The position numbers and the translations under genes are program-made. Under the pieces are notes generated by a model. The model was not told the origin of the DNA. It saw only the letters and a program-made list of their open reading frames with translations, and did no database searches. A stretch of DNA of 63,994 nt, filler included, from an uncultured bacterium (GTDB taxonomy: Bacteria; CAYJOG01): the NCBI GenBank assembly GCA_964371695.1. It is 8 parts of 8 records of this genome, joined end to end, with 100 filler letters (N's around TTAATTAATTAA, not from the genome) between each part and the next. Parts side by side here need not be neighbours in the genome. Positions count along the whole stretch, not along the records: positions 58,443 to 63,994 come from CAYJOG010000214.1; 7 more parts are not named here. The stretch is one strand, 5' to 3'. This document shows, piece by piece, positions 8,368-63,994 of the stretch (the stretch's first letter is position 1; every line of letters starts with the position of its first letter).

Positions 8368-8467
8368 NNNNNNNNNNNNNNNNNNNNNNNNNNNNNNNNN
8401 NNNNNNNNNNNTTAATTAATTAANNNNNNNNNNNNNNNNNNNNNNNNNNNNNNNNNNNNNNNNNNNN
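8368..8467. other. Artificial scaffold linker (N run + TTAATTAATTAA + N run); also at 16784-16883, 25183-25282, 33535-33634, 41862-41961, 50174-50273, 58343-58442
   Basis: Identical 100-nt all-frame-stop spacers; enclosed scaffolds decrease in length. Confidence 0.98.
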
Positions 8468-14240: not shown

Positions 14241-16615
14241 ATGACACTCAAACAACTTCAACGGCTTGAGCAGGTTTTTCGCTGGATGGCGCGGCTGGTG
14301 GGCCTGGCCCTGGCTTATGGCGCGGGCATCGGCCTGCTGCTGGGCTTCACAGGCCTGGGGGCGGGGTTGTGGTTTCTGGATTCCATGATGAAAGACCTGC
14401 CCTCCATTGAAGAGTTGCGCATGGACCGGCCCTCTGAAACCACCAAGGTCTATGCCGCAGGCGGCGAGTTGCTGGGGGAGTTTTTTCTGGAGAACCGCAA
14501 TTTCACCCCAATCCATGAAATACCCGAGGGGTTGAAAAAAGCCTTTCTGGCGGTGGAAGACACCGACTTTGAAACCCACCGGGGCGTGAAGTTTGAAAGC
14601 CTGATGCGCGCCGTGATGGCCATGAAAAAATCGGGCCGCGCCAGCCAGGGCGGCAGCACCATCACCATGCAGATCACCCGCGACCTCTACCTGAGCCGCG
14701 AGAAAACCTTCATTCGCAAGTTCAAGGAAATCATTCTGGCTTTCATGCTGGAGCAGCGTTTCAGCAAGGATGAAATTCTGGAGATGTACCTGAACAAGAT
14801 TTATTTCGGCGAATTCGCCTATGGGGTCTACACCGCCGCGCAGACCTATTTCGGAAAAGTCCCCCAGGACCTCACCGTGGCCGAGTCGGCCTTTTTGGCG
14901 GGGGTGGTGCAGCGGCCCTCGCGCCACAGCGCCTACCGCAATATTCCCCAGGCCACGGCCCGGCGCAATCTGGTGCTGGGGCGCATGCTCAAGGTGGGGT
15001 TCATCACCCAGACGGAACACGACGAAGCAGTGAAGGAGCCTTTCCGGTTGCGCTACAAGGGCCTGCCGCCACCCCCCAGCCTGGAGCGCCTGAAATATCC
15101 GCACTTCACCACCTTTGTGCTGGGTCAGTTGCTGGACACCTATGGCAAGGACGTGGTGTATGGCGGCGGCCTGAAGGTATACACCACGCTGGACGTGAAA
15201 AAACAGAAACTGGCCGAGCAGGCCCTGGCCGCCGGACTGGAACGTTATGGCAAAGCCCACCGCGTGAGCGAAGGCGCGGTGGTGACGCTGGAGGTGGGCA
15301 CGGGACACATTCTGGCCATGGTGGGGGGCCGGGATTTCAAGAACAGCAAGTTCAACCGGGCCGCCCAGGCGCTGCGCCAGCCAGGGTCGTCGTTCAAACC
15401 CATTGTCTACGCCACGGCCTGCGAAGAGGGCTTCAACATGTCCAGCCGCGCGCTGGACGCCCCCACCCGCATTCCCCTGGGCGGCGGGCGTTTTTATGAA
15501 CCCAAAAACAGCGGCAAGGGACACAGCGGCTGGCTGACCCTGCGCCAGGCCCTGACCCGCTCGGTGAACGTGGTGGCGGTGAAGGTGATCAACCAGTTGG
15601 GGCCGGAAAAGGTCATTGCCATGGCCCGGCGCTTTGGCGTCACCGCGCCCCTGCATCCGGTGCTGTCGCTGGCGCTGGGGTCCAACGAAGTGGTGCCGCT
15701 GGAAATGACCGCCGCCTTTGCCGTGTTTCCGCAGCAGGGGCTGTATGTGCCCCCCACGGGCATTGCGCGCATCACCGACCGCCTGGGCAAGGTGGTGTAT
15801 GAAGGGGGCGAAGAAGCCCCCCGCCGCGCCATCAGCGAAAAATGCGCCTTTGCCCTGGTGCAGGCCATGAAGGACGTGGTCTCGCGGGGCACCGCCCGCG
15901 CCGCCCGCATCAAAAACCACACCGTGGCGGGCAAAACCGGCACCACCAGCGATTTCAAGGACGCCTGGTTCATCGGTTACACCCCGCGCCTCACCACGGC
16001 GGTGTGGGTGGGCAACGACAGCGGCCAGGTGATGCGCCGCGTGTTTGGCGGCACCGTGCCCGCGCCCATCTGGCAGGATTACATGTCCAAGGCGCTGGGT
16101 GAGGAAAAGGGAGAGGACTTCCTCGAACCTTCGGTGGAAATGACCAAGGCCGAGTTGGGGCTGGGGCGGGGCGAGACCATCGGCGACACCCGGCGGCACA
16201 AACGCAAGTCTGATGAAGACATCGAGATTGAAGACCAATATGTAAAGCCCAGCTTTTTTGAGGAATACGCCGACCCCCTGCAAACCGAGACCGGCACCGA
16301 GAATGCGCCCCAGGAGTTTGACGAGGAACTGGACGTGGAAACCACCGGCGGCGGGGGCGGCCGCCCGGCCCCCGGCCCGATGGTGGAGGAATCGGCCAAA
16401 CCGCCGCAGACCGCGCCGGAGCCGCCACGGGAAACGCCCCCGGCGGGCCAGCCGCCCCCCCCCGCCCCCGCACCCCCCCGGGGAANNNNNNNNNNNNNNN
16501 NNNNNNNNNNNNNNNNNNNNNNNNNNNNNNNNNNNCGCCCCCGCCAGCCCCCAAACCCGCCCCCAAGCCCACCGTGCCCATGGTGGATTTTGAAGAAGCC
16601 GACGACGCGTTTTAG
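14241..16615 (+). CDS. mrcA: Class A penicillin-binding protein (PBP1A) with acidic/Pro-rich tail; internal N gap
   Basis: TGase motifs EDTDF, QGGSTITMQ, RKFKE; TPase SSFK, SVN, KTG; the frame after the gap most plausibly ends ...VDFEEADDAF-TAG at 16615. Confidence 0.9.
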
Positions 16616-58342: not shown

Positions 58343-58442
58343 NNNNNNNNNNNNNNNNNNNNNNNNNNNNNNNNNNNNNNNNNNNNTTAATTAATTAANN
58401 NNNNNNNNNNNNNNNNNNNNNNNNNNNNNNNNNNNNNNNNNN

Positions 58443-61662: not shown

Positions 61663-63720
61663 ATGTCCCGTTTCGGTTTGTTTTTTCGCCTTGGGTGGCT
61701 GGTGTGTTGGTGGGGTTTGGGTGTGCAGATGGCCCATGCTGACCTGCACCGTTTTGACGGGCCGCAACCCGGTGTGCAGGACCAATGGGTGAACCAGTCG
61801 CCGGACCCCTTCTCCTACACCCCGTTCGCCCCTTCGTTAAAGGCGCGCAAAAGGGCCTATCTTGAGTTCAGCGCCGGGCGCGAGAAGGGACTGATGGGGG
61901 CGCTGGCGCGTCTGAAGCTGGGTCAGCCGCCCATGGTGGACGACGCCGACCTCAAACGCCGCGTGGCCCATGTGAACACCCGCGTGGACACGGTGGATTT
62001 TGAAATGACCCGCCTGATGCTGGCGCTTTACATGGACAAAACCCACGCCCGCCGCCTGTTCACCCCCGCCCAGCGCGCCCTGGTAGAAAAAACCGTGCTG
62101 GATTTCAAATACTGGATCACCGAACCCGGCCCGGACACGATGATCACCTGGACAGAGAATCACATGATTCTCTTTCACAGTCTGGAATATCTCGCGGGGC
62201 AATATTTCCCCAATGCCACGTTCACCAACAACAGCAAGACAGGCCGCTGGCGCATGGCCCACGCCCGGCCTTACATCCTGCGGTGGATCAACCTGCGGGC
62301 GCGTTACGGTTTCAGCGAGTGGGACAGCAACGTGTATTACAACGAAGACATGCCCGCCCTGATGAACCTTGTCCTGTTCGCAGAAGACCCGAAAATCAAG
62401 ACCCTCGCCACCATGGCCGTGGACCTGATGTTTCTGGACATCACGCTGGATCATTTTCATGGCGTCTACGCCACCAGCCACGGCCGCACCTATGCCGAGC
62501 ACAACAAATGGCCCCTGCGCCACAGCATGGCCACGGTCTACAAAATCCTTTACGGCACCGGCCAGTTCATGAACAACGACCACTTCACCGGCACACCCCT
62601 CAGCCTGAGTGATTACGAACTGCCCCCCGCCATCGAGGCCATCGGTCAGGACAGCGCCGCCACTTTCTGGGGCCGCGAGGGCCAGGGCATTTCGCTGGAA
62701 GACGCCCTGGGGCCGCTGAAGTTCAACCCCGAAAACATTGATGATCTGGTGCATCTGTGGGCCTTTGGGGCCTACACGCAACCGGACACCATCCTGGCCA
62801 CACTCAACGCCGCCGACCGCTGGAATCTGTGGAAACATCCGTTTTTTGAAGACGCTGCCAAGGCCGCCCGCGACGTGCCTCGCGACAACCGCGTGAAGGG
62901 CATGTTGCGCACGGTGCTCATCGAAACCATGCGCACCCTGCTGGGCAGCGTGAACAAGGTGACTTTCCGCACCGCCGATTATCAGCTTTCCAGCGCACAG
63001 GATTATCGCAAGGGCGAGGCGGCCAACCAGCACTTTGTGTGGCAGGCGGCGCTCAAGCCCCACACCGTGGTGATGGTGAACAACCCCGGTGACCTGAGCG
63101 ACACAAAACGCGCCCCGGCTTATTGGATCAACGACAACCGCCTGCCCCGCACGGCCCAGTGGCGCAATGTGCTGGTGAGCCTTTACAACATTGGCAAAAA
63201 AGAACTGGCGGGCGAGCGGGGGCTTTATCTGTTCACCCACGCGTGGTTCCCGAAAAAGGATTTTGACGAAGTGCGCGACACCGGCCAGTGGACCTTTGGC
63301 CGCAAGGGCGACGCCTACATCGGCCTATACGCCAGCCAGCCCAAAACCTGGCTCACCGAAGGCCGCGAGAAAGACCGCGAGATTGTGGCCGAAGGCGACC
63401 GGGTGGTGTGGATAGCCCACTTGGGGCGCAAGGCCGAAGACGGGACGTTTGAGGAGTTCATGGCCAGGGTGAGCGCCGCCAGCGTGGTGGTGGGCGAGGC
63501 CCACGACACCGTGGCCTATGACGCGCCGGGTGTGGGCCGCCTCACGTTGGGCTGGAAGGAACCCTTCACGGTGGACGGTCAGGCCGTGCCCCTGTCGGGG
63601 TTCCCGCATTTCGACAATCCTTATGTGCTCAAGGCCAGGGGCGAGGCCAGTCTGCGACTCGAAAAAAACGGCCACGTGCTGGAGCTGGATTTTGAAAAGG
63701 CCCTGCGGGTGAAAAACTGA
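61663..63720 (+). CDS. Secreted hypothetical protein (heparinase II/III-like architecture possible)
   Basis: Signal peptide ending AHA; WTENH, GFSEWDSNVY, HGRTY; TAGGAT 6 nt before ATG. Confidence 0.7.
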   Translation: MSRFGLFFRLGWLVCWWGLGVQMAHADLHRFDGPQPGVQDQWVNQSPDPFSYTPFAPSLKARKRAYLEFSAGREKGLMGALARLKLGQPPMVDDADLKRRVAHVNTRVDTVDFEMTRLMLALYMDKTHARRLFTPAQRALVEKTVLDFKYWITEPGPDTMITWTENHMILFHSLEYLAGQYFPNATFTNNSKTGRWRMAHARPYILRWINLRARYGFSEWDSNVYYNEDMPALMNLVLFAEDPKIKTLATMAVDLMFLDITLDHFHGVYATSHGRTYAEHNKWPLRHSMATVYKILYGTGQFMNNDHFTGTPLSLSDYELPPAIEAIGQDSAATFWGREGQGISLEDALGPLKFNPENIDDLVHLWAFGAYTQPDTILATLNAADRWNLWKHPFFEDAAKAARDVPRDNRVKGMLRTVLIETMRTLLGSVNKVTFRTADYQLSSAQDYRKGEAANQHFVWQAALKPHTVVMVNNPGDLSDTKRAPAYWINDNRLPRTAQWRNVLVSLYNIGKKELAGERGLYLFTHAWFPKKDFDEVRDTGQWTFGRKGDAYIGLYASQPKTWLTEGREKDREIVAEGDRVVWIAHLGRKAEDGTFEEFMARVSAASVVVGEAHDTVAYDAPGVGRLTLGWKEPFTVDGQAVPLSGFPHFDNPYVLKARGEASLRLEKNGHVLELDFEKALRVKN

Positions 63721-63800
63721 CAAGGCCCATGAGGCGGATGCCCGCGTCAAGTTGCCCGCTCCCTCAGGGAGAGGGCAAAAAAACAGGCGCTTTCTGCGGG

Positions 63801-63994
63801 CGCGGCTTCGGTTCAAATCCTGTTTTTTTTGCCTGGTCGGGGTGACAGGATTTGGCCTTCTTGGCCTCGCCATCCTGGCTCGGCCAGCCGGGCCAGCCTG
63901 CGCCGCTTTCGGCCCATCCTGGGCCTCACCGCTTTGCGGACGCGGCTTCGGTTCAAATCCTGTTTTTTTTGCCTGGTCGGGGTGACAGGATTTG
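63801..63994 (-). repeat. tRNA-Pro 3'-end-linked direct repeat (54-bp identical copies, period 140)
   Basis: 63801-63854 = 63941-63994; minus strand CAAATCCTGTCACCCCGACCA at 63834-63854 and 63974-63994. Confidence 0.85.
63974..63994 (-). tRNA. Possible 3' end of a tRNA-Pro gene continuing beyond the window (or a further repeat unit)
   Basis: T-loop remainder + CCTGT + acceptor strand CACCCCG-A-CCA typical of tRNA-Pro. Confidence 0.5.

Follow-up and report, generated by a model that had tools for sequence, protein, structure and literature searches.

At the very end of one contig of an uncultured sediment bacterium (CAYJOG01, assembly GCA_964371695.1), the 3' end of a tRNA-Pro gene recurs in tandem together with a segment antisense to the T-arm of the same tRNA. 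This raises the question of what kind of unit carries a tRNA tail in both orientations, and what it does behind a tRNA gene. The locus was studied in a stretch of 63,994 nt (the window). With a probability of roughly 0.6, the repeat at 63795-63994 is the distal part of an RtT-like trailer cassette array behind tRNA-Pro(CGG), one locus of a family.

The repeat at the window edge

A repeat search of the window returned a direct repeat of 60 nt (63795-63854 and 63935-63994) with 59 of 60 identical positions (98%) and a spacing of 140 nt, well outside what chance would produce. With only 1.4 units in the window, 63795-63994 went unreported by Tandem Repeats Finder. Re-reading of the minus strand returned every string and coordinate of an earlier annotation (hereafter the sequence-only reading) as correct. 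The unit consists of a spacer, an antisense copy of the tRNA tail (S'), a core and a sense copy of the tail (S). From the tRNA side outwards, its parts are:

63974..63994, minus strand: S copy, the 3' end of tRNA-Pro(CGG) from T-loop C56 to CCA (CAAATCCTGTCACCCCGACCA), equal to the last 21 nt of tRNA-Pro(CGG) on contig C135; cut by the contig end
63964..63973, minus strand: spacer of the full unit, 10 nt, A-rich (GGCAAAAAAA), read from the sequence
63950..63963, minus strand: S' (ACAGGATTTGAACC), the antisense of GGTTCAAATCCTGT in the T-arm of the tRNA; the closing stem P1 is formed by the first 10 nt of S' together with S (inverted repeats, fold)
63855..63949, minus strand: conserved structured core, GC-rich, 95 nt, with an outer stem around two hairpins, a third hairpin and a ...CAAGAAGG(C) junction (alignment, RNAalifold)
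63911..63925, minus strand: hairpin b, GGCCC-AGGAU-GGGCC, whose stem covaries across units (helix 5)
63863..63885, minus strand: hairpin c, GGCC-GA-GCC-AGGAU-GGC-GA-GGCC, with the GCC-AGGAT-GGC tip at 63869-63879; covaries across units (helix 6)
63834..63854, minus strand: S copy closing the full unit (CAAATCCTGTCACCCCGACCA), identical to the tail of tRNA-Pro(CGG) (sequence, repeat search)
63795..63833, minus strand: truncated last unit with spacer, S' (ACAGGATTTGAACC at 63823-63810) and the first ~15 nt of the core; the repeat ends at 63795, and there is a weak nhmmer match at C214:5352-5383

The core at 63855..63949 scored 147 bits with the covariance model R1 of the family described below. 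The flank starts where the similarity to the unit stops, near 63795. A palindromic REP-like motif (GCCCTCTCCC..GGGAG.GGGC) is located at 63752-63799, between the array and a convergent gene; ~45 further places of the genome match this stretch, and the units of tRNA-Phe, tRNA-Thr and tRNA-Val are flanked by longer versions. The convergent gene is an ORF of 685 aa (61663-63720, plus strand) with no Pfam family at E≤0.001, the N-terminus of which resembles, by eye only, a signal or membrane segment.

The array had been described as cut by the window edge, and this is the case: position 63994 is also the end of contig C214. The assembly consists of 672 contigs (83% complete), and the window is made up of several of these with N runs in between (e.g. 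8368-8467, 16486-16535 and 58343-58442), so that neighbourhood across these runs is not real synteny. The sequence-only reading also hinged on a tRNA-Pro upstream on the minus strand. Positions 1-55 of contig C135 overlap the end of C214 at 100% and lead into a canonical tRNA-Pro(CGG) gene (C135:35-111, minus strand), the last 21 bases of which are the repeated 21-mer CAAATCCTGTCACCCCGACCA. A missing upstream tRNA-Pro would have refuted that reading; the gene is present.

The tandem order could in principle be an artefact of one assembly. It was found again in Logan contigs from four runs of one study, made with a different assembler and k; the source sample of the genome may be among these runs. 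Two contigs (X1 and X4, each a strain variant) carry the junction from the repeat to the tRNA-Pro(CGG) body, with loose ends at 63854, a third (X3) carries the junction from the exit flank to the repeat, and X2 reads body-repeat-body, going back by 140 nt. With three junctions recovered, the duplication is not a quirk of a single assembly. The S copy at 63974..63994 may belong to the tRNA itself or close a further unit; X2 shows another unit body beyond it, and hence at least one more unit beyond 63994. The number of units per Pro(CGG) array is not readable from contigs. Logan depth was higher over the unit than over the flank, a difference from which no copy number was drawn since the runs are contigs and other units cross-match. 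Many copies of the family sit at contig ends, as expected for a repeat that breaks short-read assembly. Homopolymer runs (long A/T or G/C) and N's were also seen beside tRNA genes at or near contig ends (C135:230-290 and C432:2960-3013); these look like assembly or scaffolding artefacts.

A cassette family behind many tRNA genes

Related units were sought by scanning the 39 tRNA genes found by ARAGORN for repeated or inverted copies of their tails, combined with an iterated nhmmer profile and a covariance model. Profile and model together identified 14-15 copies or fragments in the genome, and the cassette family stands behind at least 8-9 of the 39 tRNA genes. Units are 125-145 nt long and always lie on the strand of the tRNA. 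The array of tRNA-Pro(UGG) on contig C190 has two complete units of 140 nt within the contig and ends exactly at a third tail copy. tRNA-Asp is followed directly by a full unit and a truncated second one, and a full unit lies directly 3' of each of tRNA-Phe, tRNA-Thr(CGT) and tRNA-Val(UAC). At tRNA-Met and tRNA-Ser(GCU) the start of a unit is contiguous with the tRNA and the contig ends there; further Met units are located on contig C564. tRNA-Ile has a 3' module and S only, the tail copies of orphan fragments match tRNA-Val and tRNA-Gly(GCC), and tRNA-Pro(CGG) is linked to its units through the 55-nt overlap of C214 and C135.

Two side observations concern the unit edges. At two loci (~700-760 within C218:2800-3700, and C381:57-130) a second small hairpin repeat (..AGTAGCCACGGGCGTCTCGCCTGTGGC..) takes the place of the 3' part of truncated units, which suggests another insertion-prone element. 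At the Thr locus (C240:500-1200, about 320-610), the tail copy, flank, REP-like hairpin and the last ~15 nt of the core are duplicated ~240 nt further on, a segmental duplication of the 3' edge of the unit.

All units share the same order of parts: spacer, S' antisense to the local tRNA tail, a core of ~95 nt and the sense tail copy S. The spacer varies between loci from 3 to about 65 nt. S' is antisense to the local T-loop, the T-stem and sometimes the acceptor 3' strand, and ranges from 10 nt for Pro to ~23 nt, including CCA, for Ser. S comprises the local tRNA from T-loop C56 (the C after the two T's of the T-loop) to the 3' end. Its boundary is fixed: in 12 of 12 motif-bearing junctions (13 matches were examined, one of them without the motif), the base that directly follows ...GAA(A/G)G(G/C) is the first of S and aligns to the same tRNA position.

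The two copies follow the tRNA next to which they lie. Among all 39 tRNAs, the cognate one was the best match of S in 11 of the 12 junctions, the exception being a decayed Thr copy. At tRNA-Pro(CGG) the identity is 21/21, and exact tail copies also occur at Asp, Pro(UGG) and Met. Where the acceptors of the two tRNA-Pro differ (CACCCCG versus CGCCCCG), their arrays differ too, and every S follows its own tRNA. The sequence-only reading had asked whether the antisense segment likewise tracks its own tRNA. It does: scored against eight tRNAs, S' was best or tied for best on its own tRNA in six of seven validly scored units (Val was not best; Thr was left out of the S' count, its S' being by eye a 17-nt match), and S was best in all seven units with one tie. 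In the distal S of the Thr and Phe units, decay has set in beyond 9-12 nt, whereas S' still matches the tRNA over 17 nt (Thr by eye), which is not what selection on S':S pairing alone predicts. An origin of the Thr unit's S from tRNA-Glu was considered and rejected as a chance resemblance, as the locus carries two decayed Thr-type S copies with the same flank.

Among the sequences searched, the family was found only in this genome and in the four runs of one study. None of 60 genomes, all related to the host only at domain level, matched the family model. In a collection of genome contigs, a loose pattern of the core matched at least 114 stretches; with the family model, none of the 80 loci listed scored above 18 bits, against 123-149 bits for true copies. 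Fifteen of the loose-pattern loci were checked and lie at no tRNA, and the two that were read are coding sequence. Scans of metagenomes with a pattern that needed an exact match returned no match in one case and one chance match in the other. As to the host itself, its GyrB (672 aa, C164:3393-5405) aligns end to end with the 630-660-aa type, whereas forms of ~800 aa match no more than the first ~600 residues of the host protein; identity reached at most 62% in 400 sampled genomes.

Fold, proposed working and competing explanations

An RNAalifold consensus of seven units, computed on an independent MAFFT alignment, contained 40 pairs, 23 of which showed compensatory change. Its helices are the closing stem S':S, a helix of 2 bp, an outer stem with two hairpins inside it and, towards the 3' end, a longer hairpin. 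In 11 model-aligned copies, 92.2% of the cells formed a standard pair compared with 73.2% in shuffles (0 of 500 reached the observed value), and 28 of the 40 pairs had changed on both sides where 15.8 were expected; when partners were slid by 1-3 columns as a control, pairing dropped to 36-41%. The 11-copy alignment was fitted to the model and thus favours the structure, and the MAFFT alignment agrees with it. The folding z-score of the unit was -2.7. The core is a folded nucleic acid, and the covariation fits single-stranded DNA equally well. The preference for one strand is mild, with 6 G-U versus 2 A-C cells and consensus energies of -55.2 (sense) versus -51.1 kcal/mol. The GAACC that follows S', apparently a further piece of antisense T-arm, is GAAGG in Phe and Ser, where the partner has changed to CC in compensation (helix 2), and is hence part of the fold of the element itself.

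No reading frame is conserved across units. An Arg/Lys-rich ORF of 47 aa can be read in the Pro unit (63813-63956, minus strand) but is not conserved in the other units and is probably a by-product of composition. A peptide gene was rejected on two grounds, namely that stops interrupt all three sense frames of the Asp and Met units and that units differ by indels of 1 nt and 4 nt. A simple scan detected no terminator in 63500-63994. At Pro(UGG) there is none between the tRNA and the units, and a GC hairpin with a T-run follows the last S; this makes co-transcription with the tRNA plausible there. At tRNA-Asp, by contrast, the tRNA and S' are separated by a hairpin with a T-run that resembles an intrinsic terminator; it recurs along with the unit, so that the Asp units would be made only by read-through.

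Where the units lie and on which strand, the constant start of S, the fit of S and S' to the tRNA, the covariation and the arrays are observed. How such units are transcribed and processed, what they might do in the cell and by which route they reach new tRNAs is what we infer in the following, largely by analogy with E. coli rtT. The unit array would probably give rise to an RtT-like trailer RNA that is made with the tRNA and cut at tRNA-type ends. Its transcription would start at the tRNA promoter, within the precursor; each S, together with the sequence after it, would re-create the 3'-end processing site of the tRNA itself, and cleavage of the trailer by the nucleases of tRNA maturation would yield RNAs of ~140 nt that end in a tRNA-type 3' tail. 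Pairing of S' with S may close and stabilize each of these RNAs, and a partner might bind at the conserved A(G/C)GAU loops. Through unequal recombination between S copies, arrays would gain and lose units while keeping their match to the tRNA tail exact. Both the layout of the E. coli units and the ends of the rttR RNA agree with the products predicted for the present units.

Two other roles for a trailer RNA were weighed, both building on the sequence-only reading. According to one, the trailer would release a small RNA that sequesters CsrA/RsmA, the two CAGGAUG hairpins of each Pro unit binding a CsrA dimer. Both hairpin loops of Pro(CGG) do present GGA in the CAGGAUG context, a csrA gene is encoded in the genome (88 bits, above the cut-off), and the Phe unit gave a weak match to an Rfam model of the CsrB/RsmZ type. 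That match (PrrB_RsmZ, the best of its type) scored 18 bits against a gathering score of 44, with an E value of 0.84, and the GGA loops proved not to be conserved: among the seven aligned units they occur in five at hairpin b and in three at hairpin c, the other loops being ACGAU, ACGAC, AGUAU or UGGUU. Two sites per 140 nt are, moreover, far fewer than in known sponges. As a trait of the family, CsrA binding is not supported; given the csrA gene, a function as CsrA sponge keeps a very small probability for the Pro units. According to the other, the trailer pairs with the T-arm of the pre-tRNA. Such pairing is thermodynamically plausible, although as a nearest-neighbour prediction only: in all five contiguous loci the free minimum-energy fold places 29-58 tRNA nucleotides in pairs with the trailer, at a ddG of -1.3 to -16.9 kcal/mol relative to the modular fold, and in the predicted fold of Pro(UGG) S' takes the T-arm while the distal S pairs with the tRNA 5' acceptor strand. 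A cis regulator of tRNA maturation could be built on this, in which S' invades the nascent T-arm and acceptor 3' strand, the distal S serves as decoy and the balance sets the level of mature tRNA. The free folds of the five loci, favourable by 1.3-16.9 kcal/mol, agree with such a regulator, as does S' of the Thr and Phe units, which matches the tRNA better (17 nt, Thr by eye) than its own distal S (9-10 nt). Nearest-neighbour folding, however, ignores tertiary structure and modification of the tRNA and the 5'-to-3' order of co-transcriptional folding, and a tRNA that folds first may never be invaded. The change from GAACC to GAAGG in Phe and Ser with its compensation in helix 2 assigns this segment to the fold of the element, the terminator-like hairpin separates tRNA-Asp from S', and the role would not need an elaborate conserved core. 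We therefore hold a cis-regulatory role to be very doubtful; the predicted competition of the trailer with the tRNA's own T-arm nevertheless poses a concrete question on pre-tRNA folding.

How one core came to stand behind so many tRNAs is a matter of its own. The proposal of a minimal tRNA-targeting mobile unit holds insofar as a family exists at at least 8-9 tRNAs and its ends track each of them; mobility would be an inference from this pattern, and no link to a recombinase was found. Unequal recombination between S copies accounts for the arrays and for their agreement with the tRNA tail, but not for the move to a new tRNA with both ends refitted. At the DNA level, the units could be miniature integrative elements: gene-less cassettes with a recombinase acting in trans and a crossover in the T-loop, S being the att identity block, the distal S the displaced original end of the tRNA, and tandem units the outcome of repeated integrations. 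The insert is indeed flanked by direct repeats of the tRNA 3' part, as such an element demands, and irrespective of the tRNA, the start of S falls at the same T-loop position in 12 of 12 junctions. The same core occurs at many different tRNAs, the Pro(UGG) array ends exactly at an S, and the distal S decays in single-unit loci (Thr, Phe, Val), as it would in a displaced and unselected end. This contrasts with stems that keep pairing as their sequence changes, which suggests a folded single strand rather than duplex sites for protein binding. The spacer from tRNA to S' also varies from 3 to about 65 nt, the Pro(CGG) and Asp arrays end in truncated units and not at S, and S' has no role in this model. 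The single match to a PF00589 tyrosine recombinase (C289) lies off all element-bearing contigs of the 83% complete, fragmented assembly. Taken together, we regard integration of this kind as unlikely. Alternatively, RtT-like cassettes might be general companions of tRNA genes that are aimed by complementarity, with S' as guide and S as copy of the target, and that are moved or re-templated between tRNAs by an undescribed mechanism, for instance an RNA- or single-strand-mediated copy into the T-loop. If true, this would explain one core family fitted to many tRNAs here and the recurrence of its design in E. coli rtT, but we judge it to be quite improbable. The reading of the units as RtT-like trailer cassettes is the one we carry into the following comparison.

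Relation to rtT and other known systems

Direct duplications of tRNA 3' ends are familiar from tRNA-targeting islands and prophages, whose attL and attR sites are generated by tyrosine integrases, one class with a crossover in the T-loop. As in att duplications, the directly repeated 3' part of the tRNA has its start within the T-loop, and the distal copy can decay freely. Unlike att-flanked islands, the insert is only 120-145 nt long, gene-less and structurally conserved and carries an inverted copy of the target; it has no linked integrase, and one core family serves many tRNAs. A MITE was rejected because it needs constant terminal inverted repeats, whereas the S' and S ends vary by locus and copy the neighbouring tRNA, and because the short target-site duplication of a MITE would here correspond to a 'duplication' of 19-21 nt of tRNA. 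With sRNAs of the CsrB/RsmZ type, the family shares GGA loops in some units and differs in having two hairpins per unit and an unconserved GGA.

Knowledge of the rtT repeat behind E. coli tyrT dates from the late 1970s, and the comparison with tyrT drawn in the sequence-only reading is apt. Each 178-nt unit of E. coli also has an antisense piece and a sense tRNA-Tyr tail at its end: in strain K-12, every unit behind tyrV holds GGGGAAGGAT, the antisense of ATCCTTCCCC in the tail of tRNA-Tyr, and closes with AATCCTTCCCCCACCACCA. According to its annotation, the rttR RNA begins 8 nt past the tRNA and extends exactly to the CCA of the next S copy. Common to rtT and the present units are the position directly behind a tRNA, the same strand, the tandem arrangement and a copied tail with CCA that closes the unit. 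An Arg-rich ORF can be read in both, in E. coli as the 'protamine-like' tpr CDS inside rttR and here at 63813-63956 (minus strand) of the Pro unit, where it is unconserved.

In sequence the two families stand apart. The Rfam model of rtT (RF00391) did not match at E≤5 in three loci with four full units (Pro(CGG), two of Pro(UGG), and Phe), and an Rfam search of the units returned nothing at gathering score. Conversely, the covariance model of our family found three rtT units of E. coli in register and on the tRNA strand with 8-10 bits, to which the closing stem contributed most; it also picked up a fourth site, between tyrT and tyrV (5.2 bits, E 0.18). Judged by these searches the link to rtT appears to be one of design, homology being demonstrated neither by RF00391 nor by the model scores. 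A bioRxiv preprint (2024) reports raised 'mobilome' coverage over tyrT-rttR, and PMC5217627 deals with an unrelated palindrome behind tRNA genes of Methanopyrus. The literature that our search covered describes no trailer families that copy a tRNA tail beyond rtT.

The units are a new sequence family of a known but unexplained kind, the rtT-like one. For the specialist, the surprise probably lies in one core that serves many tRNAs with refitted ends, and in a trailer predicted to out-compete the fold of the tRNA; for assembly, the units break short-read contigs at tRNA genes. As a second, unrelated-looking family of rtT design, they supply what the single E. coli case lacks: the fit to at least eight tRNAs in one genome and the strong covariation provide comparative constraints, namely the C56 boundary, the S':S stem and the conserved loops. 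Core hairpin layout and length differ between the two families (140 nt here versus 178 nt in E. coli rtT), and whereas rtT in E. coli follows tRNA-Tyr only, the present family follows at least 8-9 tRNAs with its ends refitted to each.
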